Translations under genes and position numbers: made by a program
Part shown: one piece after another, positions 21,389 to 63,856 of the stretch
How the letters are laid out: each line of letters starts with the position of its first letter
Position numbering within the stretch: the stretch's first letter is position 1
Source: a virus
IMG/VR virus record: IMGVR_UViG_3300033148_003376
Location: 39,594 to 103,593 of that record
Reading direction: 5' to 3' (one strand)
DNA length: 64,000 nucleotides
The notes under the pieces: model-generated
Told to the model about the DNA's origin: nothing
What the model saw: only the letters and a program-made list of their open reading frames with translations
The model's database searches: none

Positions 21389-21598
21389 TTACAGTGAGTT
21401 GTAAAATTTTGTCGCAGCATCATCCAATGTTTTGAACAAGGAATCTGCCTTTTTCTGTTTGTCTTTTGACGCTTTCTTGATCATGGCTTTTGCCAACTTG
21501 GTGAACTCGTCCCATGCGGCTGATAGTTCGTCAAACGAATTGTCTTCCGCCTCATTCAATTTCTTGACTCTTTCCAGAAAATCTTTTGCTTTACTCAT
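21389..21598 (-). CDS. leader-tagged small protein (putative capsid-internal)
   Basis: AGGAG RBS, ATGA coupling; leader MSKAKDFLERVKKLNE. Confidence 0.75.
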   Translation of the reverse strand: MSKAKDFLERVKKLNEAEDNSFDELSAAWDEFTKLAKAMIKKASKDKQKKADSLFKTLDDAATKFYNSL

Positions 21599-21981
21599 CG
21601 CTCTGACTCCTTGTTGAATGCTTCCATGACCGTGAAAAGATGTTCTGCAGGACCCTCGATATAATCTGTATAACACTTCGTACAGTATGCTCTTGTAATA
21701 GACTCGATTCCTATATCGAGGTTCACTATGATTGCAGGTTCTTCCGAATACTTCTTGAGATCCGTTGGAATGTGATTGATCTTGCCGTCAAACGGTGATT
21801 GCTGTCTCACCGTCATAATGTGAACGATCTCGTACGGCACATCGACGAACTCACGAGGATCAATATCAGGATCGAAATCCGGGTTCGGAACCCTCTTCAT
21901 CTTCGTCTCGGTGACAGGTTCACCGGGAGGATAGAGCTTCAGAATCTTCTTACATGCTGCACATTTTCGAGGTGTTGCCAC
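21595..21981 (-). CDS. putative zinc-binding protein
   Basis: CAAC ... CTKC pairs; GTG start with GAGGA. Confidence 0.65.
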   Translation of the reverse strand: MATPRKCAACKKILKLYPPGEPVTETKMKRVPNPDFDPDIDPREFVDVPYEIVHIMTVRQQSPFDGKINHIPTDLKKYSEEPAIIVNLDIGIESITRAYCTKCYTDYIEGPAEHLFTVMEAFNKESER

Positions 21982-21993
21982 GGGTCCTCACAC

Positions 21994-22722
21994 TCAGGTA
22001 CGTTTTCGTTTTTCCAGTTCGGATTTGATCCATTTTTTCGCAATCGGATTGGTGGTCGATTTCCTGGCAAACTTGGCGACTTCTTTCCAGACCATGGCAA
22101 GAACTTTGTCATCGCTCGTCTTTGGATCACTGTTATCCACGACGATGAAGTTCTTGCCAAAGAGATTCTGAAACTTACCAATGTTGTTTTGAACATCGTT
22201 CCATGCTTTGGTTATTGCTTCCACACGGACTGTTCTTCCACCTCTTTCACCTCTTTGTTTATTCCGTTCAATTGCAACATCCAGTGACGTATTTACGAAG
22301 ATCATGAACGCATCATAGCCAAGTTCCTCGAAGTTCAATTTCTGACCCTTGATCTTGTTGTAATCTTTGGCAGTTCCATCAATGAGTAGACCCAAGCGAC
22401 CGTTGAGATACTGTTTCAGTTTTGACCCAGTCAATGTCTTGGCTTTTTTTCTAATCTCTTGTGATTTTTCGAACTCCTCTTTAGAAAGCTTTGTGAAGTC
22501 GAGAGAAAGACCAGCCCGGGTCAAAAATAATTCAACCAAATCATCGGAATTCACCGCTCTAAAGCCGTGTCCACCTGTTGTATGTTTGCCGACGAAACCT
22601 TTACCGGATCCCCCGCCCCCAGCCATGAACACGGCTTTGAAGATAGAAGGATCATACACACCCTCATTGATAAGGACTGCCTGTCGCACTCGTTCTAAAA
22701 CCTGTGCCGCTCTTGATGTCAT
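21994..22722 (-). CDS. leader-tagged P-loop kinase (zeta-toxin/AAA_33-like)
   Basis: AVFMAGGGGSGKG Walker A, VNSDD, LLIDGT, AIERNKQR..RTV lid; leader MTSRAAQVLERV...LINE. Confidence 0.8.
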   Translation of the reverse strand: MTSRAAQVLERVRQAVLINEGVYDPSIFKAVFMAGGGGSGKGFVGKHTTGGHGFRAVNSDDLVELFLTRAGLSLDFTKLSKEEFEKSQEIRKKAKTLTGSKLKQYLNGRLGLLIDGTAKDYNKIKGQKLNFEELGYDAFMIFVNTSLDVAIERNKQRGERGGRTVRVEAITKAWNDVQNNIGKFQNLFGKNFIVVDNSDPKTSDDKVLAMVWKEVAKFARKSTTNPIAKKWIKSELEKRKRT

Positions 22723-22744
22723 GGAAATATCCTCGTGGTAAATT
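22716..22744 (+). promoter_or_regulatory. possible degenerate antisense sigma70-type promoter
   Basis: ATGTCA-17-TAAATT with TG extension; spacer tggaaatat..tcgtg resembles the 62103 copy; palindrome absent. Confidence 0.35.
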
Positions 22745-22769
22745 TTGTATTTGAACGTAATGAATTATC

Positions 22770-23042
22770 TCAGGTTTCTATGTGCTTCTTGCCATCGATT
22801 GTGACACGGACATCCCCTTCATCCGTAAGATCGTTGAAGGCGTCTACAACCTTCTTGATTATCTTGTCGTCGACTGGTTTTCCAACGTCGTACGTACTAT
22901 ACGAAATCCATTTATTATTCATAGCTATGAAGACTTCGATTTTACTTCCAGGCTTCACAGTCTTCTTGATGGATGTGGCCAGATCTTCTTTTGCTTCATT
23001 TGCCTTCTTGATCACGTCCAAAAATTCTTTTGCGATACCCAT
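22770..23042 (-). CDS. leader-tagged small protein
   Basis: AAGGAG RBS; MGIAKEFLDVIKKANEA. Confidence 0.8.
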   Translation of the reverse strand: MGIAKEFLDVIKKANEAKEDLATSIKKTVKPGSKIEVFIAMNNKWISYSTYDVGKPVDDKIIKKVVDAFNDLTDEGDVRVTIDGKKHIET

Positions 23043-23087
23043 GAGATTCTCTCCTTAAAATAAACATCTGTTTACATGTTATTCGTC

Positions 23088-30283: not shown

Positions 30284-30565
30284 TTACTTCCCCTTTCGTA
30301 AGGCATATAGAGGATTAAACACATTTTTTATCATACTGTTTTGTAGGTCCGTTTCGACTTTCATCATGAGTCGATTCAAAGCATAGATGTCAGCACCACC
30401 TGGGGCACTATTGGTGAGCATCCCCATCGCATCTCTGACTTTCGACATACCTCTGCTAATTTCTTTACTGGTAGTTTCGGGATCTGGAAAATCTTTGATA
30501 TCCAGTTGTATTTTCTTCTCGTTGAGTCGAACCTTATCCAAAAAGTCCTTTGCTCTTGTGGTCAT
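30284..30565 (-). CDS. leader-tagged small protein
   Basis: AGGAGG RBS; MTTRAKDFLDKVRLNE. Confidence 0.8.
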   Translation of the reverse strand: MTTRAKDFLDKVRLNEKKIQLDIKDFPDPETTSKEISRGMSKVRDAMGMLTNSAPGGADIYALNRLMMKVETDLQNSMIKNVFNPLYALRKGK

Positions 30566-31242: not shown

Positions 31243-33222
31243 TCAAACGAGTTCTTCTGCCAAAGTGAAATCGAGTCCGGTCGACGTTATGATGGTCTTG
31301 AACGGAACGTACTCGATGTCTTGTGCAGGTTTGACAAACAGCCAGAGGTTCATCCGGTGTGCGTCGACGTCTTCTGAGTCGTTGTTGTCACTACTGCAGA
31401 CAACCCTGAACGCATAGACACCGGTACGACCTTGGATGTTCCCCATGTACGTGGTCACGAGACCCGTAGCACGTCCTTGTTCTGCCGGGTCGTTCAGCTC
31501 GAAAAGGAAGTCTTCGAGAGCTTCAGCGACTGCAGGTTTGATGACAATGAGGAGCATACGGACATGTATCCGGTCAAGAGCGGAGGGTGTCGTCCAAAGG
31601 GTCTTTTGACCCCAGATGGCAAACCCTTTACCTTGTTTGTACCGGAACGGATTGATTCCATTATCGTAGAGGAGATCCATCTCTCCTTGGTCGTACTCTC
31701 GACGAAGACCCTTGATCGTGAGTCGTCCGCGTTTCCAACCTGCGGCTGGGAACCAGAGTTCTTCAGTCGCTGCAGTCTCACAGATCGCCGCAGCCGCGAA
31801 CCCATCCGGAGAGATATAAATATCTCTGTCGTTGAAACGATCGTAGACCAGAGAGCTACCGGCGTAGATTCCCGCGTACGACGAGTTCAGAGCGAGTGTG
31901 GTCTTCCGGTAATTCACCACCTCGGTCATGTAGTCTGCTGCGTCTTCAGCGGAAAACGGAGTCGACAAGACTGCGAAGGAATCATCACGGTTCTCCGCAA
32001 GAGTCGCGAGATGTTGTTGGTAGTTGACCGTTGCCCAGCCACCATCCATGATGACCGTGAGCAGTGTCGAATCAGGATTTTTGAGAGCGTCAACAGCTAC
32101 GATCATCTCTGCGTCAGTAACAGCAGAACCGTTGTCTCCACCATTCAAGGCAAGAACGGTCGCCTGGTCTTTCGGAAGAACCGTGTTGGCAATCAAGATG
32201 TTGTCGATCGCCCTGATGTATTTCGAGGAGAGCAATCTGTCCTCTACATACATGTTTCGACCGTACCCATCCTTTAGACCTTGTACTCTCGAAAGGGTAA
32301 ACGATTCGACCGGAGTCGCAACGTTGTCTCTGTAGTACACGTCAATGACAAATGCTCCAGCTACTTTGACGTAGTCGGGATTTGTCGTATAGGTCGTCAC
32401 CTTGATCTTGATGTCATCGTTCCAGATACCCTGGTTGGTACCGTAGATGAGGATCGCTTCGTCAACGACGTCAACCTCGTCCACACCTTGTGTCGTAACT
32501 GAGAATGTTACACCGGCGTTAACATCGACCGCATCTGACACATCGCCTTTGTCAGCTTTTGTGAGAACAAATGCCGCTGTCGTCGGAACCGGTGCTGAAT
32601 ACTCAGTCAAAGCAGCCAAAGCAGCCGCAGTTTTTACAGCAACCTGAATTGCCGTATCAGCCGCAACCACATCAACTTTCACAGCGGTTCCGGTGAGACC
32701 GGGATCAGTCTGGGTATTCGCTCCATCTGTTACATCATACCAGATGTAGTGTAGATCGCCCGGTGCTTGCCATGCCCTACCAACACCATTGAAATCAAGA
32801 GTTGAAGCTACAGGACATGTCACTTCCGTCACTTCTGCAACGCCTTCGACATCCGGATTGTCATCGAAGACATACGCAGACGGGTCCACGAGACCGGCTG
32901 GAAGTGCAAAGTTGTCCGTACTCGACGAGATCGTCTTGAGCGACAGACCTCCGTAGAGTGCGTCTTTCGCCGCTCTTACCGTCCACATCTTGTTGGTTTT
33001 TTGGAGAGCGGTAAGAGCCGAAAAAAACGAAAGGTCGTGTCCGACTTCGATCTTCCCGTTGGGTGTGAAATCGTTCAAGAGCTTCGTGTCACTCGTGACT
33101 AGAACCTTCGAGTTGACAGGACCTCTTGGTGCTGGAATCGCTATACCGCAGTATGGACCAGGAAAACTCGGTACACGTGCGCTGAGATCCAACTCTGAGC
33201 GTTGAACTGCTGGTGCTCCCAT
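31243..33222 (-). CDS. tail sheath protein (T4 gp18-like)
   Basis: 659 aa; APAV..SELDLS N-terminus, WFPAAGWKRG, LYDNGINP, IWGQKTL, ALDRIHVRML, FELND, VKPAQDIEYV. Confidence 0.95.
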   Translation of the reverse strand: MGAPAVQRSELDLSARVPSFPGPYCGIAIPAPRGPVNSKVLVTSDTKLLNDFTPNGKIEVGHDLSFFSALTALQKTNKMWTVRAAKDALYGGLSLKTISSSTDNFALPAGLVDPSAYVFDDNPDVEGVAEVTEVTCPVASTLDFNGVGRAWQAPGDLHYIWYDVTDGANTQTDPGLTGTAVKVDVVAADTAIQVAVKTAAALAALTEYSAPVPTTAAFVLTKADKGDVSDAVDVNAGVTFSVTTQGVDEVDVVDEAILIYGTNQGIWNDDIKIKVTTYTTNPDYVKVAGAFVIDVYYRDNVATPVESFTLSRVQGLKDGYGRNMYVEDRLLSSKYIRAIDNILIANTVLPKDQATVLALNGGDNGSAVTDAEMIVAVDALKNPDSTLLTVIMDGGWATVNYQQHLATLAENRDDSFAVLSTPFSAEDAADYMTEVVNYRKTTLALNSSYAGIYAGSSLVYDRFNDRDIYISPDGFAAAAICETAATEELWFPAAGWKRGRLTIKGLRREYDQGEMDLLYDNGINPFRYKQGKGFAIWGQKTLWTTPSALDRIHVRMLLIVIKPAVAEALEDFLFELNDPAEQGRATGLVTTYMGNIQGRTGVYAFRVVCSSDNNDSEDVDAHRMNLWLFVKPAQDIEYVPFKTIITSTGLDFTLAEELV

Positions 33223-34227: not shown

Positions 34228-34518
34228 TCATGTCAACCCGTCCATGGCTTTGATCTTCTCGATCAAAAATGGAATATCCTTGCTCAGTGTCACAGGTACA
34301 CCGTTGATCTGGATGTCGAACAGGATGTTCCCGAGTGCGGTAAAGAAGTCGGAAAGCTCGTAGAGCTTCTTCTTTTCAACTTCGTCGTGGGTCTTCTCAA
34401 CGAGTTTCCCGAATTTCCGGATCGCGGCGATCGTGTCCTTGCGCTTGGCAAAGTCAATTTTCTCGGAGATATTTGCTTTGTCGATACGATCGATTAATTC
34501 TTTTGCAGGACTATTCAT
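34228..34518 (-). CDS. leader-tagged small protein
   Basis: MNSPAKELIDRIDKANISE. Confidence 0.75.
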   Translation of the reverse strand: MNSPAKELIDRIDKANISEKIDFAKRKDTIAAIRKFGKLVEKTHDEVEKKKLYELSDFFTALGNILFDIQINGVPVTLSKDIPFLIEKIKAMDGLT

Positions 34519-37303: not shown

Positions 37304-37305
37304 CG

Positions 37306-50172: not shown

Positions 50173-51777
50173 TCACGACTCCATTTCGTTTGTTTCGTCT
50201 TCTACCTTGATCACTCCAGTCAAGCCGATCATGTTGAGCTGTTGACCGAGGAATTTGGCGAATGCTTCCATGTCGACTTTCTCGGCAAGGGGAGATTCTT
50301 CGTCTTCGGTGAGGTTGTTCAGGAAGTCATTGATATTACTCAACATATTCACGGACGTGTCTAAAAACTCGAGTTTGTCGATATTGTCTATCTCGATGAG
50401 CTTGTTCCTGAAGTCAACGACAATATCATCATCTTTCGCGCCTATGCCTTTATTCGCCAAATGAATCTGACAAACACGTCTGACACCATCCCGAATAGCT
50501 CTTTGGATATTTTTTAGACGACGAAGATACCTGGCATAGCGTCTGAGGATCTCGCCTTTATCCATGCCTTCCGAAAGGAAGATGACCTCATAGAGTACAC
50601 CGATAGAAGAGCAACACACCTTTCTGAGATCTTCTATAGACGCGAGTAAATCGTCGGGTTCGTCGGATTTGTAATCCATCTTGTTCACGGTACCCTTATC
50701 ACCAAAGATAGGAATACACTTGAACTTGCCAGCGGTACCCAGAACGTTTTCGAGTGTCATCTGACCTTGGCTGACATCGATAGCGATCTTCTCGTTGATG
50801 ATGCCTTCGAGCCGACGACAGACTCGTGTGGCTTTGTCGAGATCATACCCAGGAGGAACCTGGATACTGAGGATCGTTCCGCTAGTCATCTTCTGAAGCT
50901 TCGTCGCTGGGACAAGCTGTTCCATCAATTCCAGCTCTTTGAACTTATTGATCACTGGATATATGACACCTTTACCCACACGAACGAATCTCGGGATATT
51001 AGCGAAGCATGTCTCAGGGTCTTTGACACCATAATGCTTCTGGATATCGATTCTGATCTTCTTACCCGGGAGTGTGAATATCGCGTAGTCTGAACTATCT
51101 TTCAACTTGAGTGTGTACCCGTGTCGACCAGCCGCAAGTTCGATGTACCCGTCGATCTTCCTACCTTTCGAAACCGCGAGTACGGTACCCTGTTCAACAC
51201 AGTCGATAAGTTCTTCGAGACCACCTTTATTCGAGACCTTCGGCTTGAGGATGTATTCGCCGTAGCGGAGCACGTCCGGTAGGATATCGAGAATAAGCGT
51301 ATCGAATCCAATCCGCTCGTCGAGGATCTTCAGCTCTTTGTTTATATGTTTGTTTTCTGAAGATACCGACAGGACTTCCCCGCTTGAGACTTCCGGAGTA
51401 AGCGCGTCTTCCACCATCTGATCGATGATGACATCGACGAGGTAGAAATCAGAGATCCTGTCGATCTCCTTGATGATGTTTTTTCGGAGACGAGATACTC
51501 TGGTGTACGCGGCAACCATTGACGTGGACGCGAACTTGTTCTTCATGAGACTGCGAATGTCCGCGAGACTTTCAGCGAGAGATCCATAGTCGCTGACATT
51601 GAGAGTCGTTTTCAGGATATCCAGTTGTGATTCGTTGAGACTACTCAAAGACTCGATGACCGAGTTGACCGGACTAGAGAGATCCTCGTCTCCAACGACA
51701 TCTGTTACCGCTGCAGTCATAGCACGAGTTCTCGTATCAACTGGTGTCTTGGATTTCTTTTTACGTATAAATGGCAT
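50173..51777 (-). CDS. portal protein (T4 gp20-like)
   Basis: 534 aa between terminase and protease; VDVIIDQMVEDAL, DVLRYGEYIL, ELELMEQ, LRRYARYLRRLKNIQ. Confidence 0.75.
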   Translation of the reverse strand: MPFIRKKKSKTPVDTRTRAMTAAVTDVVGDEDLSSPVNSVIESLSSLNESQLDILKTTLNVSDYGSLAESLADIRSLMKNKFASTSMVAAYTRVSRLRKNIIKEIDRISDFYLVDVIIDQMVEDALTPEVSSGEVLSVSSENKHINKELKILDERIGFDTLILDILPDVLRYGEYILKPKVSNKGGLEELIDCVEQGTVLAVSKGRKIDGYIELAAGRHGYTLKLKDSSDYAIFTLPGKKIRIDIQKHYGVKDPETCFANIPRFVRVGKGVIYPVINKFKELELMEQLVPATKLQKMTSGTILSIQVPPGYDLDKATRVCRRLEGIINEKIAIDVSQGQMTLENVLGTAGKFKCIPIFGDKGTVNKMDYKSDEPDDLLASIEDLRKVCCSSIGVLYEVIFLSEGMDKGEILRRYARYLRRLKNIQRAIRDGVRRVCQIHLANKGIGAKDDDIVVDFRNKLIEIDNIDKLEFLDTSVNMLSNINDFLNNLTEDEESPLAEKVDMEAFAKFLGQQLNMIGLTGVIKVEDETNEMES

Positions 51778-51790: not shown

Positions 51791-52144
51791 TCAATTTGGA
51801 ATTATCGTCGTGACAAACGTAGTCGGGAAAACGTGTCCGTCTACAATCTTCGATTTGAATTCACCCGTCATCTTGTAACCGATCATGTCGACAAGTTTCT
51901 TGAGTCTCCTGGTGTACGCCTTCTTGTCTTTTTCGATGTACTGTTCCAGGGTCTTGTACTCAACAGTGATTTCTTTTTCTTTCTCAGTGGTGTTGAGAAG
52001 TCTCGCTGCTTTCACCGCTGTGTATCCAGACCCAAAACTCAGATCACGATCTTTGTTCAGGATCTCGATATTCCTGTGAAGAATGATGTGACCTGGAATC
52101 ATACTTCTCTCGACGAGATCCAGGAATTCTCTTGCGATACCCAT
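51791..52144 (-). CDS. leader-tagged protein
   Basis: MGIAREFLDLVERS. Confidence 0.8.
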   Translation of the reverse strand: MGIAREFLDLVERSMIPGHIILHRNIEILNKDRDLSFGSGYTAVKAARLLNTTEKEKEITVEYKTLEQYIEKDKKAYTRRLKKLVDMIGYKMTGEFKSKIVDGHVFPTTFVTTIIPN

Positions 52145-52161: not shown

Positions 52162-52662
52162 TTACTTTGCCTTGTCGACGATCTGAACAGCAGTCTTGAG
52201 CTGTTTCGAGAATTTCTCTGGGATCTTCCTTCCGGACCTGACGAGGGAATCGAACAACGTCTTCGCGATATGTAGATCTCCTTCGATACCGTCAGAGTTT
52301 TCGTCGAGGACTTCGAGAATCTTCTCATCGTCTATTCCGAGATGGTTCGAGACTGTCTTGAATTTCTGCTCAACACCTGTGATGTGATTGCCGATGTCTT
52401 CAGCGTCGTCGAATTCCGTCTTGATCTCGGTAAGTGCAGTGTCAAGAGCTTTGGCTACATCTTGACACTCATTGCTCACGAACGACTCGATCGTATCGAT
52501 GTAGGAGAACATCTCTTGAAGCAACCCGTCTTCTTTGGCTCTTGTTTCGAGATCGACCAGGTCTACCGTTGAAAGAGTGCGTCGAAAATCGAATGACTTG
52601 ATTCTACCGAGTTTAGTCTTGGCTTCATCGAATTGTTTGAGAATGTCGTCTGCTCTACCCAT
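52162..52662 (-). CDS. leader-tagged helical protein
   Basis: GAGGT RBS; MGRADDILKQFDEA. Confidence 0.8.
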   Translation of the reverse strand: MGRADDILKQFDEAKTKLGRIKSFDFRRTLSTVDLVDLETRAKEDGLLQEMFSYIDTIESFVSNECQDVAKALDTALTEIKTEFDDAEDIGNHITGVEQKFKTVSNHLGIDDEKILEVLDENSDGIEGDLHIAKTLFDSLVRSGRKIPEKFSKQLKTAVQIVDKAK

Positions 52663-52810: not shown

Positions 52811-53125
52811 CTACCTGATACCCAACGACATCTTCGCATGATCACCATGGTAATAAACATTTTTCTTGTTCGGATGTGGCTCGACCTTGTCGATGAGATC
52901 CATGGCTTCACCCTTGTTACCCGCGTCAATGAAAAACGCCACACCGTTCCCGGCATTGGCATTGACGACAGTCTGGTCCCAATTCAGTCCACCGACCTTG
53001 CCTGACATCTTGGCTTTCTTCTTAGCCTTTTCGAGATTTCCGACGTACTTCTCGTCTGCCCACATTATGATGGTTTTGCTCACGGCTTCGCGTACTTTCG
53101 TAAGGACATCTGATGCTCGACTCAT
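52811..53125 (-). CDS. leader-tagged protein
   Basis: GGAG RBS, ATGA coupling; MSRASDVLTKVREA. Confidence 0.8.
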   Translation of the reverse strand: MSRASDVLTKVREAVSKTIIMWADEKYVGNLEKAKKKAKMSGKVGGLNWDQTVVNANAGNGVAFFIDAGNKGEAMDLIDKVEPHPNKKNVYYHGDHAKMSLGIR

Positions 53126-53574: not shown

Positions 53575-54246
53575 TCACTGCCAGTTTCCGATGATCTTCT
53601 CTGCTTCGAGAAGCTTGTCGAGAAGGTTGTTCAATCCTTCGACGCTGTCTTTGATATGGAAACCCTTGCTACCGAGATCCATGTTGAAGTTCTCGCTACC
53701 CGTCGAGAAAGGAATCTCTCCGAAATAGTTGAACTTGATGACTCCTTCGCCGGTCTCGTCATCCACCGTTACCTTGATGAAATCCTTCTCTCGTTTCTGG
53801 AGCATTTCCAAGAATGACTTGGCACCGCTCTCGAAGTCTTTGAAGTCTGCCTTCTTGATCGGTTTCATCTTCTCATTGAGAGACTCGGTAAATTCAGTAG
53901 AAAGAGCCTTGATCTCGGCTGGTGTCATGATCGACGACATACCCGAAGGCCAACCGGTGACACCACCTTTGTTGCTCGGGTTCGCCCACCTGAAAAGAAC
54001 GGGTGCGCTGTTGAGACCAGTCCGACCGGTATTGTACACGGTGACATCAACGGCTTGTGCGTCTGGATACTTCTTCAAGATCGTACCAAGAACCTTCTTC
54101 GGGTTCTTGAACTTGTCAATATCCGAAAAGGGGAGATTCTCCGTCTTGTAACTACCCGGTGTATTCACTCCGATGGTTATGTGCGGACCATCGAATATTT
54201 TCTTAGCTTCCTTCATTCGCTTGAGGACTTCACTTGCTTTGGACAT
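53575..54246 (-). CDS. leader-tagged two-domain protein
   Basis: AAGGAG RBS; MSKASEVLKRMKEA; internal FTESLNE linker. Confidence 0.8.
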   Translation of the reverse strand: MSKASEVLKRMKEAKKIFDGPHITIGVNTPGSYKTENLPFSDIDKFKNPKKVLGTILKKYPDAQAVDVTVYNTGRTGLNSAPVLFRWANPSNKGGVTGWPSGMSSIMTPAEIKALSTEFTESLNEKMKPIKKADFKDFESGAKSFLEMLQKREKDFIKVTVDDETGEGVIKFNYFGEIPFSTGSENFNMDLGSKGFHIKDSVEGLNNLLDKLLEAEKIIGNWQ

Positions 54247-54823
54247 CACTCTTCTCCTTCTTTGGTGGTATAACGATCTTGCATTCGACGAAGTCATACA
54301 ACGGTTGTCCCCATTTAGGAAGCACTGTTGTTTTCTTGATGTACCACTTACCCGATATATCCTTGTCCTTGATCATGATGAACTTCCCGGATTTGGTTGG
54401 TTTCTCCGAGAGGATATAGTACCGGTGGCGAGCCTTGCCAGTCATAGAGTCGAACGATGCGACGATGCTTTGAGCGAGTTGGTTCTTTGGAACACATTTC
54501 ACCTCGATCTCGTCGGCTTTGATCGGCTTACCCGATGCTAAGGCAATAACCACCGTTGGCATGGCAATACAGATTCGAAAGAGTCTCATCATATCAGTCT
54601 CCTTTCGTTCAATGACGACTGCGTAGAGTCCGGTCACCAGCGCAAGAATAAAATATGGAATACACGTGCCGAGTGCAACCATGAACGTGATTACTCCAAA
54701 GTCAATCGGATTCTGGGACATGTTCACAGCCGGGATAATGATCGCTGAAAAAGATCCAATTCCGAATCGTACGTACCATGAGAGGATCACATCCTTGGTG
54801 ATAATCGACGTCTTCTCTGTCAT
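54230..54823 (-). CDS. membrane protein
   Basis: About three hydrophobic segments in the N-terminal half. Confidence 0.7.
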   Translation of the reverse strand: MTEKTSIITKDVILSWYVRFGIGSFSAIIIPAVNMSQNPIDFGVITFMVALGTCIPYFILALVTGLYAVVIERKETDMMRLFRICIAMPTVVIALASGKPIKADEIEVKCVPKNQLAQSIVASFDSMTGKARHRYYILSEKPTKSGKFIMIKDKDISGKWYIKKTTVLPKWGQPLYDFVECKIVIPPKKEKSDVQSK

Positions 54824-55254
54824 GACTTCACCTTTCTCAGGGATCCCAGATTTACACGGTAGACCATCCCGTCTTCAGACGTAACAGACGCCTGTCCGTA
54901 TCGGGGAAGAATCCTGCTCACGGTATAGACATGATCCTTACCGTGCTTCGTTATCATGTCCCGCTCGATCTGGTTCGTCGGTTTCGAGAGTTTGACGGAG
55001 ACTCCCTTTTTGATCCCATTGTCGTTGGCTTCGTCTACGTGGTCATCGTCATCGGGTTTGTAACAACTACACTCTTTCACCGCTTTTGGCCAGATGTCCT
55101 TCCATGGACACTTGTCTCCCTCCTTGATCACGCCACGTTTTGTATTCTTACATCCTGGGACACAGACATCATCTTTGAAGTGAGCGCAGATAGTTCCCTG
55201 GTTTGCTTCGTTTGCTTTGTCGATTGTATCGAGGAGATTGTTGACGAGGGTCAT
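54820..55254 (-). CDS. leader-tagged protein with Cys-rich domain
   Basis: MTLVNNLLDTIDKANEA; six Cys; linker HVDEA. Confidence 0.75.
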   Translation of the reverse strand: MTLVNNLLDTIDKANEANQGTICAHFKDDVCVPGCKNTKRGVIKEGDKCPWKDIWPKAVKECSCYKPDDDDHVDEANDNGIKKGVSVKLSKPTNQIERDMITKHGKDHVYTVSRILPRYGQASVTSEDGMVYRVNLGSLRKVKS

Positions 55255-55869: not shown

Positions 55870-57381
55870 TTAGAATTTATACCCGAATAGTCGTCGTACT
55901 TCTTCACCAACTGAATAACCTTGACCATCACTGCCCGCGAGAGCATCGAGCCAACTCGCCGAATGAAGCTTCAAAAGTGCTTGGCTCGACGAGTCCGTGC
56001 GATCGTTCGTCGCCGCATTGGGAAACGACACAAGCTCATCAATATAATCTTTGACCCATGGCGCATCGATAGTAGTAGGATCCGGTACCCAGATATTCCC
56101 TGCTTCAAATTGAGGAGAAACAGCACGTAAACGCGCTACCTTGGAATCTTGTCCTGGATTAAACCCAGTGACACCAGGAACGTGTTCACACATCGTCTCG
56201 ATAACTGCTGGACCATTGGCTTTATCCTCGACGGCGTGTTCTATTGACATCGGCCATTTCCCAGCCATGTCTTTCATCGCCGAAAGAGTCCCGATAAATC
56301 CCGTACGCTCGTGATACATATCGAGTAGATATCTCCGAGGACCAATCGTCCCCCAGACAGTCCCACAGACAAACGAGTTGTTATCACCGGCTTTGAAGTT
56401 ACAGTCCCACGATGTCATGATCACATCGAACTGTTCGATCGGTGGCATCTCTCGATATTTTCGGAACCATGTCCGCTCAATGATGTTTCCGGATTCAGGA
56501 GAAGGTCTTTGCTGATACAGTGCGTTCCAGACCTGGGTACCGAGAGATGCTTTGATCTTCGCGAGTCGTTCGAGGTTATATTTCCATTCCCAAAGAGGAT
56601 CTCCGATTTTACGTGGGTCGTCTGGGTTGCTATCATCCTCTTTTACCGCTGGAAAATTGACGAGTACCCATTGGTCTGCGTCTTCGTCTTCAGCCATGAA
56701 TTCAAGGAGAGAACCAATAAGGTCCGCTTCATGCCAACGTGTAGCGGTAATGAGAATTCCGGCGTCTTTTTCCGCTCTCGTATAGAATGTACTGCGATAC
56801 CAATCGAGGATAGTTTTTCTGGTCGTCTTCGATAACGCTTCTTGCATGTTTTTGAGAAAGTCGTCGATTAGAAGATAGTGTCCTCCAAGTCCTGTGATCC
56901 CGGCTCCAACTCCAGCCGAACGATATGCTCCTTCATAATTGACGATTTCGAAGAGATCTGAATTCCGAAGATATGATCCATGTGCTGTCGTACGGACGTT
57001 CTTAGACCAGAGTGTTGTATTTGGAAAGACCTGTTGATACTCGTTCGAATCGATGATCCGCTGAACATCGCGGTTCATTCTTGATGCAAGGTCGGATCCG
57101 TATGAACATGAGATGATCGACGTGTTGGGATTTCTGCCGAAAATATATGCTGGTAATCTCCTAGAAACTAGCTCGGATTTTCCATGGCGAGGTGGCATCG
57201 TAACGATGAGTCTTTTGATCTCACCTCTGATGAACTTGTCAAGGACTTCACAAAGAACGGCATGGTGCCAATTTACCTGATAGTCCTTCTTCGTGTACGT
57301 CGTGAAATCGAGCAGACTCCTCCGCGCGAATTCTGCGTCAATCGAATTTACAGTGACTGGGACTTGGATAGGTGCGTTCAC
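55870..57381 (-). CDS. terL: terminase large subunit
   Basis: MPPRHGKS Walker A, LLIDD Walker B, TRWHEADL, ALYQQRP, SWD nuclease, VEDKANG, FPNAATNDRTDSSSQAL. Confidence 0.95.
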   Translation of the reverse strand: MNAPIQVPVTVNSIDAEFARRSLLDFTTYTKKDYQVNWHHAVLCEVLDKFIRGEIKRLIVTMPPRHGKSELVSRRLPAYIFGRNPNTSIISCSYGSDLASRMNRDVQRIIDSNEYQQVFPNTTLWSKNVRTTAHGSYLRNSDLFEIVNYEGAYRSAGVGAGITGLGGHYLLIDDFLKNMQEALSKTTRKTILDWYRSTFYTRAEKDAGILITATRWHEADLIGSLLEFMAEDEDADQWVLVNFPAVKEDDSNPDDPRKIGDPLWEWKYNLERLAKIKASLGTQVWNALYQQRPSPESGNIIERTWFRKYREMPPIEQFDVIMTSWDCNFKAGDNNSFVCGTVWGTIGPRRYLLDMYHERTGFIGTLSAMKDMAGKWPMSIEHAVEDKANGPAVIETMCEHVPGVTGFNPGQDSKVARLRAVSPQFEAGNIWVPDPTTIDAPWVKDYIDELVSFPNAATNDRTDSSSQALLKLHSASWLDALAGSDGQGYSVGEEVRRLFGYKF

Positions 57382-57388: not shown

Positions 57389-57571
57389 TCATTTACCCTG
57401 TCTTGGAGATGTGGAGAGCGATGTCCGTCGACCGTCTACCATGTATTCGTGTAGAAGACATGTGTACCACGGAGCTTGTACATACGGAGATGTAACGACT
57501 AGATATTGATCGCTACTGTGTTTGTTCAGTAGAACACGGTTATACCATTTCTCTATTGTAGGAGTGTTCAT
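57389..57571 (-). CDS. small hypothetical protein
   Basis: 60 aa, ATGA coupling. Confidence 0.45.
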   Translation of the reverse strand: MNTPTIEKWYNRVLLNKHSSDQYLVVTSPYVQAPWYTCLLHEYMVDGRRTSLSTSPRQGK

Positions 57572-58242
57572 ACGTCGCCTTCTCCTCCGACTGTTTGAAT
57601 CTCGAACGAATACACTCCGTCTTTTTCTTTGACGCTGGTGTTCAAAACATATCTTGATCCTTTCGGCGCAAGACCATGGGTACTGTATTTATTGATCTTG
57701 TACTTTCTTAGGATCTTTCTGATCTTATCCATAGAGATTGTTCTTGAAGCATCTTCTACAGCAACTCCATCCGTGCCACTGATCATGATAGATCCGCCGA
57801 AATCTCCATCGGGTTTCGTAATCTCTGTCACTTTCAGGTTGAAGCTCTTTGCTACCTTGTTGACCATCGACGTAATAGTCTTCCAAAGACCTCCTTGTAT
57901 CTTCGTAATCTGTACAGTGATAATCTCGGGACTTCCACCCGAAAGACTGCCGATCACGAAGTCTTTCGGAACAATCGCTTTGAGTTGGTCTCTGATCTCT
58001 TCAGATCGACGTACGATTTCATCTCTGGACATCTCACCGGTGTCCTTGTAGTAATCAAACATGATGACAAGGGTATCTTTTCCGTGTTGACGAACCTTGT
58101 AACCAGATTGTATCTTGCGTTTCGTCCATATCGACGTTTTCAATCCAAGCTTTTTGAGATAAGGCAAAATGGCTGTAGGCTCAACAGCGAGCATACCCAT
58201 CGCTTCTTCAATGACGTCAAGAAGATCTCGTACGATTCCCAT
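57568..58242 (-). CDS. leader-tagged protein
   Basis: AAGGAG RBS; MGIVRDLLDVIEEA. Confidence 0.8.
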   Translation of the reverse strand: MGIVRDLLDVIEEAMGMLAVEPTAILPYLKKLGLKTSIWTKRKIQSGYKVRQHGKDTLVIMFDYYKDTGEMSRDEIVRRSEEIRDQLKAIVPKDFVIGSLSGGSPEIITVQITKIQGGLWKTITSMVNKVAKSFNLKVTEITKPDGDFGGSIMISGTDGVAVEDASRTISMDKIRKILRKYKINKYSTHGLAPKGSRYVLNTSVKEKDGVYSFEIQTVGGEGDV

Positions 58243-58254: not shown

Positions 58255-58743
58255 TTACGCGGCTCTTGTGCCACCATGTGGAATTCTCTTTGCAAGACCT
58301 ATGATCAGCTCGTCTGCCTGACCCATGATCCTCTTTTGATCTTTCTCCGGGAAGCTATCTATGTTCTGCAGTTTGAATCTCATCTGGTCAATAGAGTGGA
58401 TATCCTTGGGGAACATCTTCTTGAGATTCTTGAGTGCTACGAGTTGTTGATTGACTCGACCACCTTGTGCCTTCTCGATGAGACTGAGAAGATCCTCGAC
58501 GAGGGATTCTTTCGGCGCGGGTCCGTATGTCTTTCCATATCGAGCACGGATCTCTTTTCTCTTCTCTATCGAGAGACTGTACCAGATGCTACCGATAGTC
58601 TGTCGGATCCGTTCGTCGTCGTAGGTGGGACTGGATTTCTTGATATCCTTTACCATCTTGTCCCACCATTCAGATGGTGCCTTGAGGCTAGGCGCAGTCT
58701 CCGCTTTTTCAACGAGACTGAGAAAGGATTGTACTAGGTTCAT
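58255..58743 (-). CDS. protein with two leader copies (fusion of two tagged modules)
   Basis: MNLVQSFLSLVEKAE and internal ESLVEDLLSLIEKAQ. Confidence 0.8.
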   Translation of the reverse strand: MNLVQSFLSLVEKAETAPSLKAPSEWWDKMVKDIKKSSPTYDDERIRQTIGSIWYSLSIEKRKEIRARYGKTYGPAPKESLVEDLLSLIEKAQGGRVNQQLVALKNLKKMFPKDIHSIDQMRFKLQNIDSFPEKDQKRIMGQADELIIGLAKRIPHGGTRAA

Positions 58744-58988: not shown

Positions 58989-59239
58989 CTCAGATGAAAC
59001 TCTACGTTATTGACTGTGAAGGTGAATCCGTCAGTGGTGTACTTCAAACCCTTGATGTACTTCGTCTCGATAACAATCCTCGTACACGACTGAATGAGAA
59101 TGATTTTCTCGTCAGAAACATCGTCGATCTTATAGAGACCCGACACGGCAAGTCCGTGTGTCAACATGGTGACTTTGAGTCTATCAGGAATGGATGTCCT
59201 GAGATAATCTTGAAGTGTCAAAAGATGTATCCTCTTCAA
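58985..59239 (-). CDS. hypothetical protein, paralogue of 58740..58988
   Basis: Same shared pattern; TTGA/ATGA coupling. Confidence 0.7.
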   Translation of the reverse strand: MKRIHLLTLQDYLRTSIPDRLKVTMLTHGLAVSGLYKIDDVSDEKIILIQSCTRIVIETKYIKGLKYTTDGFTFTVNNVEFHLR

Positions 59240-59562
59240 CCTTGTGCGAGTTCCTTCGGTAGGATCGGAAGCTTTCGAATATGTTTCTCGATCGCAGCCT
59301 TGGTACTGCTCACGGTACCACCGGCTCTGAACGACGTCGCGATGAGGTATCCCTTCGGTAGCTTGTCGTCGTCATGGAAGACATCGACGACTCCGTATAC
59401 GTCCTTCTCCGGGTCGTTCGGTATGTAGACAAGACTCGCCTTTCCGCCTTTGACGCTCAGAAGATGATGAGCTTGTTTCGCAAGCGTCGTCGCAGTCTCC
59501 TCGACCCACTTCATTACCTTGCTCTCATTGATAACTTTGAGAAAATCTCTTGCCAGCGTCAT
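59236..59562 (-). CDS. leader-tagged protein
   Basis: MTLARDFLKVINES. Confidence 0.8.
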   Translation of the reverse strand: MTLARDFLKVINESKVMKWVEETATTLAKQAHHLLSVKGGKASLVYIPNDPEKDVYGVVDVFHDDDKLPKGYLIATSFRAGGTVSSTKAAIEKHIRKLPILPKELAQG

Positions 59563-59988: not shown

Positions 59989-60237
59989 ATGACAAAAAAA
60001 CATCCATACGGATATGACCACACAACAGGCGAAGGTCAGAAACGTCTCATGTACGAATCAATTGGGTTCGACATTACCAAAAAACAAGAGACGCCATCCT
60101 ATTACGAAGATGGTGAAACAGGGTCTGATCCAATCCTCGACGACAATGGAAATCCAACAGGTAAAATCAAGATGTATCCTACCGGACGAATCGTCGACCG
60201 AACAACTCGTCTGAATGCGTATCAACCGAAGAAATAG
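59989..60237 (+). CDS. hypothetical protein; only well-supported plus-strand gene
   Basis: Consensus promoter, GGAGG RBS, fills a gap in the minus-strand gene series. Confidence 0.8.
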   Translation: MTKKHPYGYDHTTGEGQKRLMYESIGFDITKKQETPSYYEDGETGSDPILDDNGNPTGKIKMYPTGRIVDRTTRLNAYQPKK

Positions 60238-60455
60238 TCATACCATTCTTCGTCCGTCGTACGAATGAGCATTCCAATCGTCTCACCTGGAAAGTCACTC
60301 GTGTGACCACCGGCATCTCCCTTTTCAAGAGCTTTGATAGCCTTGGGAATATTCTTCTGAACTCTCTTGAGCCATTCGATCGCCGCTTTGGTCATCTTGG
60401 CTTCATCGCCTTGACCCTCGTTACATGCTTTCAAGAAATCCTTCGCTATGGTCAT
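60222..60455 (-). CDS. leader-tagged small protein
   Basis: MTIAKDFLKACNEG. Confidence 0.8.
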   Translation of the reverse strand: MTIAKDFLKACNEGQGDEAKMTKAAIEWLKRVQKNIPKAIKALEKGDAGGHTSDFPGETIGMLIRTTDEEWYDYFFG

Positions 60456-60804: not shown

Positions 60805-61161
60805 TCACTGATCCGATGTTTGAACTTTGAAAAAGTACGACCCTTCATCTTCGATAACCTCTGACGCGTAAACAAAGAGCTTTCCGCTAGGTGCCTTTTC
60901 AAGAGTATCGAAGACTTTGATTCCGTGTTTCTTCCCTACTGAAACAAGTTCTTTCAATATCGAAGATCGTGCCTTTTTCGTTTTCGATTCGTCGTCGCCT
61001 TGTATCTCAATACCACCCTCATCTCCATCCGGGTCAAACAGATCATTCAGCTTGAATCCCTTGGCATTCTTCTTGACGACAGCCTCGACATCTTTCCAGA
61101 TCTTTCCAACCGCTTCATTGGCCTTCTCGACGGTCTCCAACACGTCCTTCACGATTCCCAT
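60805..61161 (-). CDS. leader-tagged protein
   Basis: GAGGAG RBS; MGIVKDVLETVEKANEA. Confidence 0.8.
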   Translation of the reverse strand: MGIVKDVLETVEKANEAVGKIWKDVEAVVKKNAKGFKLNDLFDPDGDEGGIEIQGDDESKTKKARSSILKELVSVGKKHGIKVFDTLEKAPSGKLFVYASEVIEDEGSYFFKVQTSDQ

Positions 61162-61209: not shown

Positions 61210-61401
61210 TCATACTCCTTTTACGAACTCAACCCAATGTCTCGTCGACGCGGCTTTCATTCCCATCTTCACCTGACGCAGTTGAATGAAATTGACGATC
61301 TCGTCGACGGACTTCCCTTGTGCCTTGAGCCGTTGGATCATGTCTTCAACCGACTCTACTGACGCCTCGATCATGTCAAGAAATTTCTTCGCGATTCCCA
61401 T
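61210..61401 (-). CDS. leader-tagged small protein
   Basis: MGIAKKFLDMIEASVES. Confidence 0.8.
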   Translation of the reverse strand: MGIAKKFLDMIEASVESVEDMIQRLKAQGKSVDEIVNFIQLRQVKMGMKAASTRHWVEFVKGV

Positions 61402-61759: not shown

Positions 61760-61761
61760 GA

Positions 61762-62091
61762 TCAACCAATGATTGTCCACTCGACTTGCATCGTTGCATC
61801 TTGTCCCATCATCGTGTTGACGTCAATCCTGACTTCATGGCTCGTGCCGTCATCGAACTCGACCATAGGTGTATACCGAACGGCAAAATCTCGCGAAGGT
61901 TTATTGAGTCCAAGACCACTCATCATCTTGATCGGATTCGGCCAATCGATAGATTTGACGTCCTTTTTGAAGACCTTCTCGATCTTGGTCTTGAGGTCAA
62001 CCTTGGTAATCTTACCACCGGCTTGTGCTTCATTGACTTGGTTCGCTTCGTTGATCTTGTCGAGTAATTGCGCTGCAGGACTCTTGCTCAT
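61762..62091 (-). CDS. leader-tagged protein
   Basis: AAGGAG RBS; MSKSPAAQLLDKINEANQVNEA. Confidence 0.8.
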   Translation of the reverse strand: MSKSPAAQLLDKINEANQVNEAQAGGKITKVDLKTKIEKVFKKDVKSIDWPNPIKMMSGLGLNKPSRDFAVRYTPMVEFDDGTSHEVRIDVNTMMGQDATMQVEWTIIG

Positions 62092-62102
62092 GACTCTTCT
62101 CC

Positions 62103-62156
62103 TTGACATGTGGAAATATTCGTGATAATTTCCGTGGAATTTTATTCCACGGAAAA
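62103..62156 (+). promoter_or_regulatory. antisense sigma70-type promoter plus palindrome, copy 4
   Basis: TTGACA-17-TAATTT with TG extension; perfect tttccgtggaat-ttt-attccacggaaa at 62129-62155. Confidence 0.75.
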
Positions 62157-62164
62157 GTTACTTC

Positions 62165-62536
62165 TTACTTCTTGATCCCCTGGTCCTTCAAGATATCGTC
62201 GAGTAGGTTCCGAAACTTCACGTCGTCGAGGGTTCCACCCGCTTTGGTGTACGCATCGTAAATATCAGAGCCCCTCGAATTCTTCTCGTCGTTGTAGCTC
62301 TTCACCAGGAGATTGATGTCTTTCAACTCTTTCTTCCCAAGCGGAGTTCGATCCGTCTGTCGTCGATACGACGAAAGGACACCGACTTCCGCGACTCCTC
62401 CGATGTCGTCGAGAGACTTGTACGGTTTCAGGTCGGGAAGCTTCTTCGGTCCACGGAGCTTGTCGAACTCTCCCCAGAGAAACATATCCCTCGACGCTTC
62501 TTCGATGGACTTGAGAAGATCTTTAACGATACCCAT
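62165..62536 (-). CDS. leader-tagged protein
   Basis: AAAGGA RBS; MGIVKDLLKSIEEA. Confidence 0.8.
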   Translation of the reverse strand: MGIVKDLLKSIEEASRDMFLWGEFDKLRGPKKLPDLKPYKSLDDIGGVAEVGVLSSYRRQTDRTPLGKKELKDINLLVKSYNDEKNSRGSDIYDAYTKAGGTLDDVKFRNLLDDILKDQGIKK

Positions 62537-62571
62537 GATAAATCCTTTCCGAGCGATCAAATATGACCACG

Positions 62572-62904
62572 CTAGCGACTTCCGAAACGAATAGCATCGG
62601 CTATTTTACATGTATTCTTTTCTCTCTGCTCCACTGTCCCAGCTTGTTGTTTTCCACTCAGGTACCAGTCATAGAGATGGCCTATCTCATGATGAATCGC
62701 TTCACCGAACTCGATCGCGTTTAGACCTTTTGTCACAAGAATCTCATTTCCCTCATTCGGGTAATGAATTCTAGCAACGACGTCATCGGTGATCTTCTCT
62801 ACAATTCTCATTCTGACCGGTATATGGATTTCAACAACATCAGTCATTGTCTTTCGATCTCCGGTATTTTCCACGACCCATACATACAAACCATGATTCT
62901 TCAC
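62572..62904 (-). CDS. small HExxH zincin-like metallopeptidase
   Basis: AIHHEIGH with a downstream Glu (QRE). Confidence 0.6.
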   Translation of the reverse strand: MKNHGLYVWVVENTGDRKTMTDVVEIHIPVRMRIVEKITDDVVARIHYPNEGNEILVTKGLNAIEFGEAIHHEIGHLYDWYLSGKQQAGTVEQREKNTCKIADAIRFGSR

Positions 62905-63284
62905 ACGGTGATATACGCGACGACTTCGTACTGGTTATCTTTTCCAGTGAGATCGTGCCAGGAGACGTTCAATCCGACATTACTCACCGACTGTGGTGAA
63001 TGTGGATCGTCGGTCTTGAATTCAAGGTTGAACAGATGGGTACCTTTTTCTTTCTCGCGAAAGATATCAGCAGAGACGACATCTGCGATCTGGATGTCAT
63101 GTTTGTCGAGTACACCGTGGATCTTGTTCACGGCGTCACCATGAGACTTGAATCGACCGTTCCCGTCGAACCCAGCTTTTCGTAGATCGTCGTTGATCTT
63201 CGAGCCGAGTTTCTTGTCTAGCTTCGCACCGATGGACTTCTTTGCTTCAGCGACTGTGTTAAGAAGGTCTTGTACGAGAGTCAT
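62901..63284 (-). CDS. leader-tagged protein
   Basis: GGAG RBS; MTLVQDLLNTVAEA. Confidence 0.8.
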   Translation of the reverse strand: MTLVQDLLNTVAEAKKSIGAKLDKKLGSKINDDLRKAGFDGNGRFKSHGDAVNKIHGVLDKHDIQIADVVSADIFREKEKGTHLFNLEFKTDDPHSPQSVSNVGLNVSWHDLTGKDNQYEVVAYITV

Positions 63285-63307
63285 GGTGATGGTCTCCATT
63301 AAAACGA

Positions 63308-63856
63308 TTAAACCGATATGATGTATTTATCCTTGAATCTCTTGTATTCATTCTTCGTCATGACCTGGTGTGCCATAACGATCCGTCGTCTATCTGGACC
63401 TTTACCCGAATAGTCCCATAGAACACCGTCAATCACAGACATGGAATGACCTGGTGTCCCTATGAGGAATTTCCCCTTTGGAAATGTCTTGATGAATTTA
63501 CTGATTGACATATTGGGTTTAAACTTGGCATAAAAAGATTTGACCAAAGTCTTCTCATTATATTTCCAAGACGTACCATCCTTGGATCGAAACGATGCCC
63601 TGAACGCAACAGAACCTGGAATGATACGTTCGATGTCAACGAGTTCGAATCCGGCGTCTCGAAGAACTTCAATATTTCCAGATGTGCCGAAGATACACTT
63701 GTCTGATGAAACGTCAAACGCTTCGAGAGAAAAATTAGTACACCGACCATGTCCTTTGAGGGAAACATACTTTACTGACTTGCCATCGAATATAGCACCG
63801 CTCGTTTGGATCTCGGCTTGTTCAATGACATTTAGAAGGTCTTGCACGAGAGTCAT
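63308..63856 (-). CDS. leader-tagged papain-like peptidase candidate
   Basis: MTLVQDLLNVIEQAE; GRCTNFSL (Cys), GHSMSVIDG (His), LWD (Asp). Confidence 0.7.
   Translation of the reverse strand: MTLVQDLLNVIEQAEIQTSGAIFDGKSVKYVSLKGHGRCTNFSLEAFDVSSDKCIFGTSGNIEVLRDAGFELVDIERIIPGSVAFRASFRSKDGTSWKYNEKTLVKSFYAKFKPNMSISKFIKTFPKGKFLIGTPGHSMSVIDGVLWDYSGKGPDRRRIVMAHQVMTKNEYKRFKDKYIISV

Follow-up and report, generated by a model that had tools for sequence, protein, structure and literature searches.

The stretch of DNA analysed here, referred to as the window, comprises the right-hand 64 kb (64,000 nucleotides) of a 103,593-bp IMG/VR virus contig belonging to an uncultured T4-like phage (record IMGVR_UViG_3300033148_003376, positions 39,594 to 103,593), the contig ending at window position 64000, and it carries 31 genes whose products begin with a common short peptide that we call the tag. 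The contig is 57% complete according to the CheckV estimate; its first 39 kb are mostly occupied by small plus-strand genes, and beyond them nearly all genes lie on the minus strand. On this minus strand PHROGs matches identify the large terminase (55870-57381), with tagged genes on either side, the portal protein (50173-51777), a head maturation (prohead) protease that belongs to the family of T4 gp21 and is joined to a helical scaffold (40184-41839, the PHROGs match being listed at 40184-41863) and the major capsid protein, of the gp23 family, encoded in two exons (39772-40110 and 38356-39489, with the PHROGs match at 38356-39492). The tagged genes occupy the space among the terminase, portal, protease and capsid genes and represent about 31 of the about 57 minus-strand genes called between 21389 and 64000. 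The tag was found on none of the 18 tail-fibre and baseplate genes in 1-21388, and the early arm shows one weak N-terminal candidate among about 85 genes.

The initial annotation had proposed that 31 minus-strand open reading frames (ORFs) share an N-terminal amphipathic leader, and each of the 31 was indeed found to start with an ATG codon followed by the motif, with a GGAG-type ribosome-binding site (RBS) 5-10 nt upstream. The encoded proteins range from 63 to 366 aa and define the consensus M-[GSTN]-x-[AV]-x-[DE]-h-L-x-x-h-x-E-[AS], in which h is a hydrophobic and x any residue, with an insertion of 1-2 residues after the Met in six of them (22722, 30565, 34518, 37303, 49412 and 62091; single numbers denote the position at which a gene starts). 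The hydrophobic spacing described for the leader was confirmed at positions 4, 7, 8 and 11, as was the Glu site behind it, Glu being enriched at positions 12-13. We compared a hidden Markov model (HMM) of the first 14 residues with the entire 103.6-kb contig translated in six frames. The 31 proteins scored 7.6-19.9 bits, every match being N-terminal, and the best matches outside the training set reached at most 8.7 bits, several of these being additional occurrences of the tag within tagged proteins or at their termini. In a leave-one-out version of the model 22 of the 31 scored at least 7.5 bits and two more 5.0 and 8.2 bits; the seven weak members (22722, 34518, 37303, 45770, 48652, 49412 and 52662, at 0.3-5.0 bits) are still plausible because the motif lies exactly at their start.

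The gene nearest to the tail-fibre and baseplate region, 21389-21598 (69 aa, MSKAKDFLERVKKLNE), reaches 16.5 bits in the leave-one-out test. Supported by both the HMM and its leave-one-out version are also 22770-23042 (90 aa, MGIAKEFLDVIKKANE), 30284-30565 (93 aa, MTTRAKDFLDKVRLNE, with one extra residue), 43416-43886 (156 aa, MSIVHDVLSTCRLAE), 47106-47366 (86 aa, MSLVQDLNDTIEEA), 47439-47663 (74 aa, MGIAKKFLDDIKKACNE), 49578-49868 (96 aa, MGIAKDLLNSIQES), 49880-50161 (93 aa, MSIMKDLLDAIGEA), which lies directly downstream of the portal gene, 51791-52144 (117 aa, MGIAREFLDLVERS), 52811-53125 (104 aa, MSRASDVLTKVREA), 53575-54246 (223 aa, MSKASEVLKRMKEA) and 54820-55254 (144 aa, MTLVNNLLDTIDKANE), the last with a Cys-rich body. 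Beyond the terminase gene the same support is found for 59236-59562 (108 aa, MTLARDFLKVINES), 60222-60455 (77 aa, MTIAKDFLKACNEG), 61210-61401 (63 aa, MGIAKKFLDMIEAS), 61762-62091 (109 aa, MSKSPAAQLLDKINEA, with two extra residues), 62165-62536 (123 aa, MGIVKDLLKSIEEA), 62901-63284 (127 aa, MTLVQDLLNTVAEA) and 63308-63856 (182 aa, MTLVQDLLNVIEQAE). The members that are weak when left out of the training correspond to 21994-22722 (242 aa, MTSRAAQVLERVRQAVLINE, 5.0 bits), 34228-34518 (96 aa, MNSPAKELIDRIDKANISE), 36953-37303 (116 aa, MSKSIAGKFLENLNE, with two extra residues), 44742-45770 (342 aa, MNLVQNLLLLIEAA), 47675-48652 (325 aa, MGKADRLLSMCEA), 49161-49412 (83 aa, MTATAKDLQSVVNE), the weakest member, and 52162-52662 (166 aa, MGRADDILKQFDEA). 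The set is completed by 43901-44674 (257 aa, MSRAGDVLKKMHNLG), 45781-46881 (366 aa, MTIASDFLDLILE), 57568-58242 (224 aa, MGIVRDLLDVIEEA), 58255-58743 (162 aa, MNLVQSFLSLVEKAE) and 60805-61161 (118 aa, MGIVKDVLETVEKANE).

The position of the tag was further assessed with a matrix that ignores the Met, run with a cut-off of 8 bits over six genomes of the clade, namely the window contig and five whole fetched records of relatives (G001-G005). Exactly on a start codon lie 113 of the 171 matches, against about 5% expected (binomial P ~1e-105), and for most of the remaining ones the start codon is one residue off. In an alignment of 101 tagged proteins of the clade 14 ungapped conserved columns are followed by noise; conservation thus ends at residue ~14, and known domains begin from residues 16-29.

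Analysis of the codons in the 25 tag copies without insertions or deletions revealed that codon positions 1 and 2 are conserved wherever the residue is conserved, whereas third positions carry only 0.06-0.68 bit. Leu8 is encoded by CTG, TTG, CTA, CTC and CTT and Ala4 by all four of its codons, and the RBS is the sole element shared upstream of the tagged genes. With third positions free to vary in this way, it is the peptide that is under selection.

Copies of the tag beyond those of the earlier list were found within the 58743 protein, at the C-terminus of the J-domain and AAA proteins and, in degenerate form, near the N-terminus of two further minus-strand ORFs detected with the HMM. The C-terminal copies are SVASDFLEKMNAL, from 45825 in the J-domain protein (46881), and AE-SKADRLLNMCS, from 47713 in the AAA ATPase (48652); the degenerate ones are located at residue 20 of ORF 42934-43245 (KSLARQFLDIIERN) and, as a tag-like stretch, at residues 10-24 of the 67-aa ORF 46889-47092 (IKDKKDILDAIDSG). 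The N- and C-terminal tags of the AAA and J proteins share the peptide (KADRLL.MC and ASDFL), and the third positions are the same in only 4/11 or 4/12 codons, so the two copies have been kept by selection and are not recent duplications. ORF 58255-58743 carries two tags in a single reading frame, the second (E-SLVEDLLSLIEKAQ, from 58509) at residue 79 and immediately preceded by a Glu; the arrangement resembles an in-frame fusion of two tagged genes, or a small polyprotein.

Behind the tag the proteins are diverse. The initial annotation had stated that the bodies show no similarity to each other, and BLAST comparison of the window bodies after removal of the first 20 residues bears this out for all except one pair, the 58242 and 61161 proteins, in which the C-terminal domain of the former is homologous to the latter (34% identity over 99 aa, E 6e-13). 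At the level of the six genomes, 114 tagged proteins fall into 109 BLAST families. Pfam recognises three of the window bodies, a zeta-toxin-type P-loop kinase (Zeta_toxin/AAA_33, from residue 29 of 22722), a J domain (DnaJ, residues 23-69 of 46881) and an AAA ATPase (48652). Neither Pfam nor PHROGs gave a significant family for the other bodies among the 19 window proteins scanned individually, and a collective Pfam scan of 110 clade members added no attribution for window proteins. Across the clade that scan identified an ADP-ribosyltransferase (ART) of the ART-PolyVal 'polyvalent protein' type and a GNAT acetyltransferase, both in G003, a DUF3175 protein and one EncFtn/rubrerythrin-like member, which falls outside the 19 window proteins and the 20 longest proteins of relatives that had individual scans, ferritins of the EncFtn type being known encapsulin cargo. 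The tagged AAA ATPase of G004 (L053:3584-6427; G004 43584, plus strand) has 948 aa, is interrupted by an intein (Hom_end_hint plus a homing endonuclease domain) and carries the tag once more in its interior, near residue 690 (E-SRASKLLEEMDD). The domains start right behind the tag, at residue 23 for DnaJ, 29 for Zeta_toxin and 16 for ART-PolyVal. The window bodies are soluble, 17 of them basic and 11 acidic, with a median length of 117 aa.

The genes expected of a T4-type head maturation pathway are present in the same module. The prohead protease, of 551 aa, had been described as gp21-like, and this assignment is sustained by its membership of phrog_207, shared with T4 gp21, by an alignment with gp21 over 164 residues in which the catalytic His, Ser and Asp are aligned, and by its fold. 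An AlphaFold model built with 105 homologues has a confident N-terminal domain (predicted local distance difference test, pLDDT, >90) that matches the gp21 crystal structure 5JBL in Foldseek (E 6e-10, template modelling score normalised to the target 0.80), whereas a search of the protease sequence against the chains of the PDB gave no match. The protease occupies residues 1-190 and the scaffold helices residues 265-506; behind these come a disordered linker and, at 530-540, a short helix at the C-terminus. The long scaffold helices contain a repeated Y-x-x-L-G-x-x-E-E-I (residues 320-470), kept in more than 100 homologues, and the family of protease-scaffold fusions numbers more than 2,000 representatives, with S-R-x-x-R-L-x-E-x-F as its family-wide C-terminal tail. 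Several relatives show hydrophobic-x-Glu just before this tail and the present phage I-R-E 8 residues before it; the tail with the preceding h-x-E recalls the herpesvirus scaffold tail and maturation site.

T4 gp21 cuts after (L/I)-x-E, and its giant-phage relatives too cut after Glu (PMC9026906, PMC5694885). The capsid homologues belong to Pfam PF07068, the Gp23 family, and in 114 of 119 aligned capsid sequences [LMIV]-C-E is found about 12 residues before LGxIP. Our capsid protein has a five-residue insertion at this conserved site, which here reads M-I-S-E/S, and the candidate cut site that had been noted in its prodomain (exon 1) is an h-x-E site conserved among the homologues. The same kind of site follows the tag: h-x-E occurs at residues 9-20 in 103 of 108 tagged proteins, versus 27% expected from the bodies, and 32-41% have Glu at tag position 12 or 13, also when the set was assembled without regard to those positions.

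The tag extends to a wide group of phages. With the portal protein as a query we found about 90 homologues in public metagenomes (33-48% identity), and a search with their alignment led to 26 IMG/VR loci, a single-sequence search of the loci with the portal having given no match. In most of these 26 loci several genes on the strand of the portal start with M-[SNTG]-[KR]-A-x-x-[LIV]-[LI]-x-x-h-x-E. The five fetched genome records, two of them with terminal repeats (G001, 181.6 kb, and G002, 95.7 kb), contain 10-27 tagged genes each, with the clade pattern M-S-K-A-x-x-L-L-x-x-h-x-E; in G001 all of them are confined to a block of head and tail genes at 6.6-78 kb, and the other 100 kb contains none. 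A terminase search yielded two distant loci, both without the tag, and the exact DNA pattern for MSKAKELL[DE] occurs in nine stretches of IMG/VR, three in known contigs and the rest as single uninformative copies. Among cultured phages the closest are Rhizobium phages of the Kleczkowskaviridae (33% portal identity), and about ten tagged genes are found in the complete genome of one of these, RHph_Y65 (e.g. MSKASDLLSRIHE, MSKARDLLNTLNE and MSRAKDILEKLSS), their products including gp330, gp331, gp332, gp339, gp352 and gp357. In the tRNA cluster of RHph_Y65 (L065 / NC_070967 130992-138295) three tagged genes lie between tRNA genes.

Some proteins with the tag or with a similar sequence are, or resemble, core, shell or scaffold proteins. 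RHph_Y65 gp330, named 'prohead core protein' by its depositors, starts with MSKSADLITKID, matches phrog_3503 (E 3e-12) and is followed by two further tagged genes; the phrog_3503 member of G003 starts with MKISDLILSLKD, a variant of the tag without residue 2, and T4 gp68 matches this family weakly (E 0.0017). In T4 the space from portal to protease, where most tagged genes are found here, holds the core genes 67 and 68. By eye, and over 10 residues, the T4 gp24 propeptide MAKINELLRE/S resembles the clade consensus MSKAKELLE, as does the gp23 N-terminus (..TKAELLNKW..), the agreement with the consensus being at K3, E6, L7 and L8; also by eye, the N-terminus of T4 gp22 (..QLIAEA) resembles the T4 capsid targeting sequence (..EFIAEA). 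These likenesses indicate that in T4, too, the cargo tag looks like the end of a core or shell protein. Tag-like segments were also noticed in the scaffolds of G002 (IEKARELLEKYKELG) and G001 (FNKAESLIKKYRELG) and in the present scaffold (GDVLKKYQELGEPG), the last beside the tag of the 44674 protein (MSRAGDVLKKMHNLGFP), which resembles the scaffold segment GDVLKKYQELG. The scaffold tail S-R-x-x-R-L-x-E-x-F can be placed in register with the tag.

On the basis of these data we consider it probable that the tag is a T4-type propeptide for capsid targeting and cleavage, greatly expanded. After removal of the Met the propeptide would be [GST]-[KRIL]-[AV]-x-[DE]-h-L-x-x-h-x-E, predicted as a 14-residue N-terminal amphipathic helix. 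The tagged proteins would be made together with the head proteins and docked by this helix into the assembling scaffold core or the prohead interior, perhaps by mimicking the scaffold's own helices, and such mimicry would explain how the tag works from the C-terminus too. The gp21-family protease fused to the scaffold would then cut after the Glu of h-x-E, freeing the cargo inside the head, and the cargo would stay with the DNA and probably be delivered to the next host. From the sequence features described we infer packaging, cleavage and delivery alike. We propose more tentatively, as a possibility, that the tag is a portable mimic of a docking helix of the scaffold, functional at either end of a protein, and that it serves throughout this clade of T4-like phages, cultivable Rhizobium phages among them, as an address by which dozens of different proteins per virion would be injected before or with the DNA. 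One copy of each tagged window protein sums to 4,754 aa, and tens of copies of each would fit the internal-protein load of T4. A report on SPN3US gives a figure of more than 40 MDa of packed ejection proteins (PMC7411985).

Several observations weigh against this interpretation. The exact cut site is ambiguous, because many tags contain several h-x-E and offer one at 9, 12 and 13. On the tag matrix T4 IPI-III score -17 to -26, the window tag profile has no match in the whole T4 genome, and a J-domain protein, an AAA+ ATPase and a kinase would be unusual capsid cargo. For the scaffold tails the matrix gave 32% above the 99th percentile versus 18% expected, a weak excess, and we keep the C-terminal tail and the internal scaffold segments as weakly supported candidate copies of the tag, that is, as leads. 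A complex prediction for the protease-scaffold with the first 40 residues of a tagged protein scored 0.00; it was run without controls and counts neither way. The placement of tagged genes in two relatives is also unfavourable, given that several in RHph_Y65 lie on the strand of the replication genes, the head genes being on the other one, either right behind the gene for DNA polymerase or in the tRNA cluster, and four in G002 lie beside an AAA ATPase and a helicase. The restriction of the tag to late-region genes, as anticipated by the initial annotation, is thus observed in the window, where the tag appears on the structural strand only, and fails across the clade, so that timing with head assembly is not established for all tagged genes. 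The ip genes of T4 are likewise scattered, next to tRNA genes (ipI by the tRNA cluster) and among early-strand genes, and the placement in RHph_Y65 and G002 weakens the prediction of late genes only without refuting the capsid-loading model. No proteome of, or experiment on, a phage of this clade was found.

The capsid targeting sequence (CTS) that T4 internal proteins carry was reportedly characterised by Mullaney and Black in 1996. It is present on the internal proteins IPI, IPII and IPIII and on Alt (PMC3012670, PMC9026906), and Alt is a packaged ADP-ribosyltransferase with propeptides at both ends (PMC9026906). In both systems a short N-terminal peptide (10-19 residues) precedes otherwise unrelated, fast-evolving proteins and ends in hydrophobic-x-Glu, the cut site of a gp21-family protease (cutting being predicted here), and the head genes are the same, with a gp23-type capsid protein, a gp20-type portal and a gp17-type terminase. 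The parallel with Alt extends to the tagged ART of G003 and to the two window proteins tagged at both ends. Nevertheless the peptides differ, MKTYQEFIAE in T4 versus MSKAKELLExIxE here, with no profile match and only [KQ]-E-[FL]-[IL] in common; the tagged proteins are a handful in T4 and at least 31 per partial genome here, where about half of the head-module genes are tagged and the protease is fused to the scaffold; and T4 gp67 and gp68 are themselves without the tag motif at their start. As far as sequence analysis can tell, every feature of the T4 CTS that is open to it is found here, with the exception of likeness to the T4 peptide; the T4-type capsid loading proposed at the outset therefore stands in its tested sequence-level predictions and falls short in the likeness of the tag to the T4 CTS profile.

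Other systems are comparable in part. Encapsulin cargo-loading peptides and the C-terminal helices of the 80alpha/SaPI1 scaffold and CpmB are terminal peptides that dock cargo or scaffold inside a shell of the HK97 fold, and in 80alpha/SaPI1 a mimic helix competes for the scaffold's site; such peptides mostly sit at the C-terminus and undergo no proteolytic removal. One putative cargo of our clade is the EncFtn/rubrerythrin-like protein. In phiKZ and SPN3US a gp21-type protease cleaves many ejection proteins and internal head proteins behind a Glu, and SPN3US gp53 and gp54 have identical N-termini (PMC5694885, PMC10052503); however, the propeptides are mostly longer than 100 residues and protein-specific, with the cut motif Ala/Ser/Gly-x-Glu (PMC5694885, PMC10052503). 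Long propeptides of this type were not encountered here, conservation stopping at about residue 14. DarB of P1 carries at its N-terminus a signal that is enough to bring a foreign protein into the head of a myovirus, although it concerns a single protein, the Dar proteins having no common consensus and a T4-type scaffold-protease system being absent (PMC9024508). The literature that we found describes few CTS proteins per phage among T4-like phages and long, protein-specific propeptides in giant phages, and the scale observed here, at least 31 tagged proteins in a 57% genome, at both termini and in several enzyme classes, is far beyond the published T4-like cases.

Among the alternatives, the tag may be a cap removed by a gp21-type or another Glu-specific protease, which keeps enzymes inactive or marks them for processing without any capsid targeting. 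The enrichment of h-x-E after the helix, the presence of bodies potentially harmful to the producing cell (the Zeta_toxin kinase and the ART) and the tagged genes that some relatives carry outside late modules agree with such a function. We nonetheless judge it unlikely, as in T4 the protease of the gp21 family is active inside the prohead (PMC9026906, PMC5694885) and a substrate must therefore be inside to be cut; moreover, a cap would have no need of the conserved amphipathic face (4, 7, 8, 11), the C-terminal copies and the tag on gp68-like core proteins fit docking better, and most bodies are tiny and without an enzyme signature.

It is quite unlikely that the tag is a recognition peptide for another phage machine, either a modifying enzyme, as with the leaders of ribosomally synthesised and post-translationally modified peptides (RiPPs), or the phage's own J-domain/AAA chaperone pair. 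A short peptide on many unrelated proteins does have the look of a RiPP leader, and a radical-SAM gene is found in or beside the tag clusters of G001 (9119-9583, plus strand) and G005 (37122-37601, plus strand); however, Radical_SAM is lacking in the complete RHph_Y65, with its ten or so tagged genes, and in the 103.6 kb of this phage, and the complete G002 has only a sub-threshold match at least 10 kb from the tagged genes. Being missing from several tag-bearing genomes, Radical_SAM is no general partner of the tag, and its linkage as a general rule was rejected. No other enzyme family was noticed travelling with the tag, no systematic search having been made. A J protein and an AAA ATPase do figure among the tagged genes of the window, but they are themselves tagged at both ends, which makes them clients rather than readers.

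That the tagged genes form one old paralogous family, whose bodies diverged past recognition and whose N-terminus, for instance an oligomerisation helix, merely evolved most slowly and has no sorting role, is very improbable. Unrelated known folds (DnaJ, AAA, P-loop kinase, ART, GNAT and ferritin-like), lengths from 63 to 366 aa and C-terminal tags mean that common descent of whole genes cannot explain the tagged set, even though the small accessory proteins of phages evolve rapidly, a relationship persists in one pair of bodies and the subtypes of the tag (MGIAK.., MTLVQ.., MSRA..) resemble lineages. Highly improbable, too, is that a host protease or chaperone recognises the tag as a degron or timing signal at the N-terminus. 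The likeness is at the level of the pattern M-S-x-A-K-h, which we take to recall loosely the N-terminal ClpX signals of lambda O and Dps; but the most conserved positions form an amphipathic helix and then acidic residues, unlike a polar or basic degron, there are C-terminal and internal copies and core-protein homologues with the tag, and it is kept across a clade whose hosts need not match. Conservation of the DNA or RNA itself (as a recombination cassette, an enhancer of translation initiation or a regulatory RNA over the 5' ends of the genes), to which the A-rich codons 2-5 of many copies and the packing of tagged genes 10-15 nt apart might point, was rejected by the third-position tests and can practically be discarded, given nearly uninformative third positions, the use of all synonymous Leu and Ala codons, an upstream region in which only the RBS is kept, and N- and C-terminal copies that share the peptide and only 4 of 11 or 12 third positions.

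If the tag is a true sorting signal, as we favour, the packaged and probably injected proteins could be read from any genome of this large, mostly uncultured clade, and most of the cargo, whose functions are not known, would be prime candidates for anti-defence or host-takeover factors. The three to five CTS proteins of T4 would then mark the lower extreme of a much broader strategy that devotes half of a head module to cargo, and the short tag could become a cargo-loading handle for engineered protein delivery in phages beyond T4 and P1. Should the tag also mimic the docking helix, the injected cargo would include an ADP-ribosyltransferase, an acetyltransferase, a kinase, a J-domain co-chaperone and an AAA+ ATPase. 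As RHph_Y65 carries the tag and can be grown, the idea is open to direct testing.

Other features were observed along the minus strand of the window. The major capsid protein gene is split by a group I intron (39490-39771; Rfam RF00028, 99.3 bits at 39539-39781), and the capsid genes of G001 and G002 are unsplit at the corresponding point (..VQP-V/IDDE..). The tail sheath gene was identified with PHROGs at 31243-33222 and the baseplate and fibre genes, by the same means, further down on this strand. Between the capsid and sheath genes a 667-aa ORF (34938-36941), with a homologue in G001, gives weak matches to an HNH endonuclease and to a helicase fragment, and it may be a structural gene with an inserted nuclease. 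Finally, the untagged ORF 48697-49080, located amid tagged genes, starts with (V/M)KIFDDVLLTS, a pattern nearer to MKTFKEF/MKTYQEF of T4 than to the local tag.

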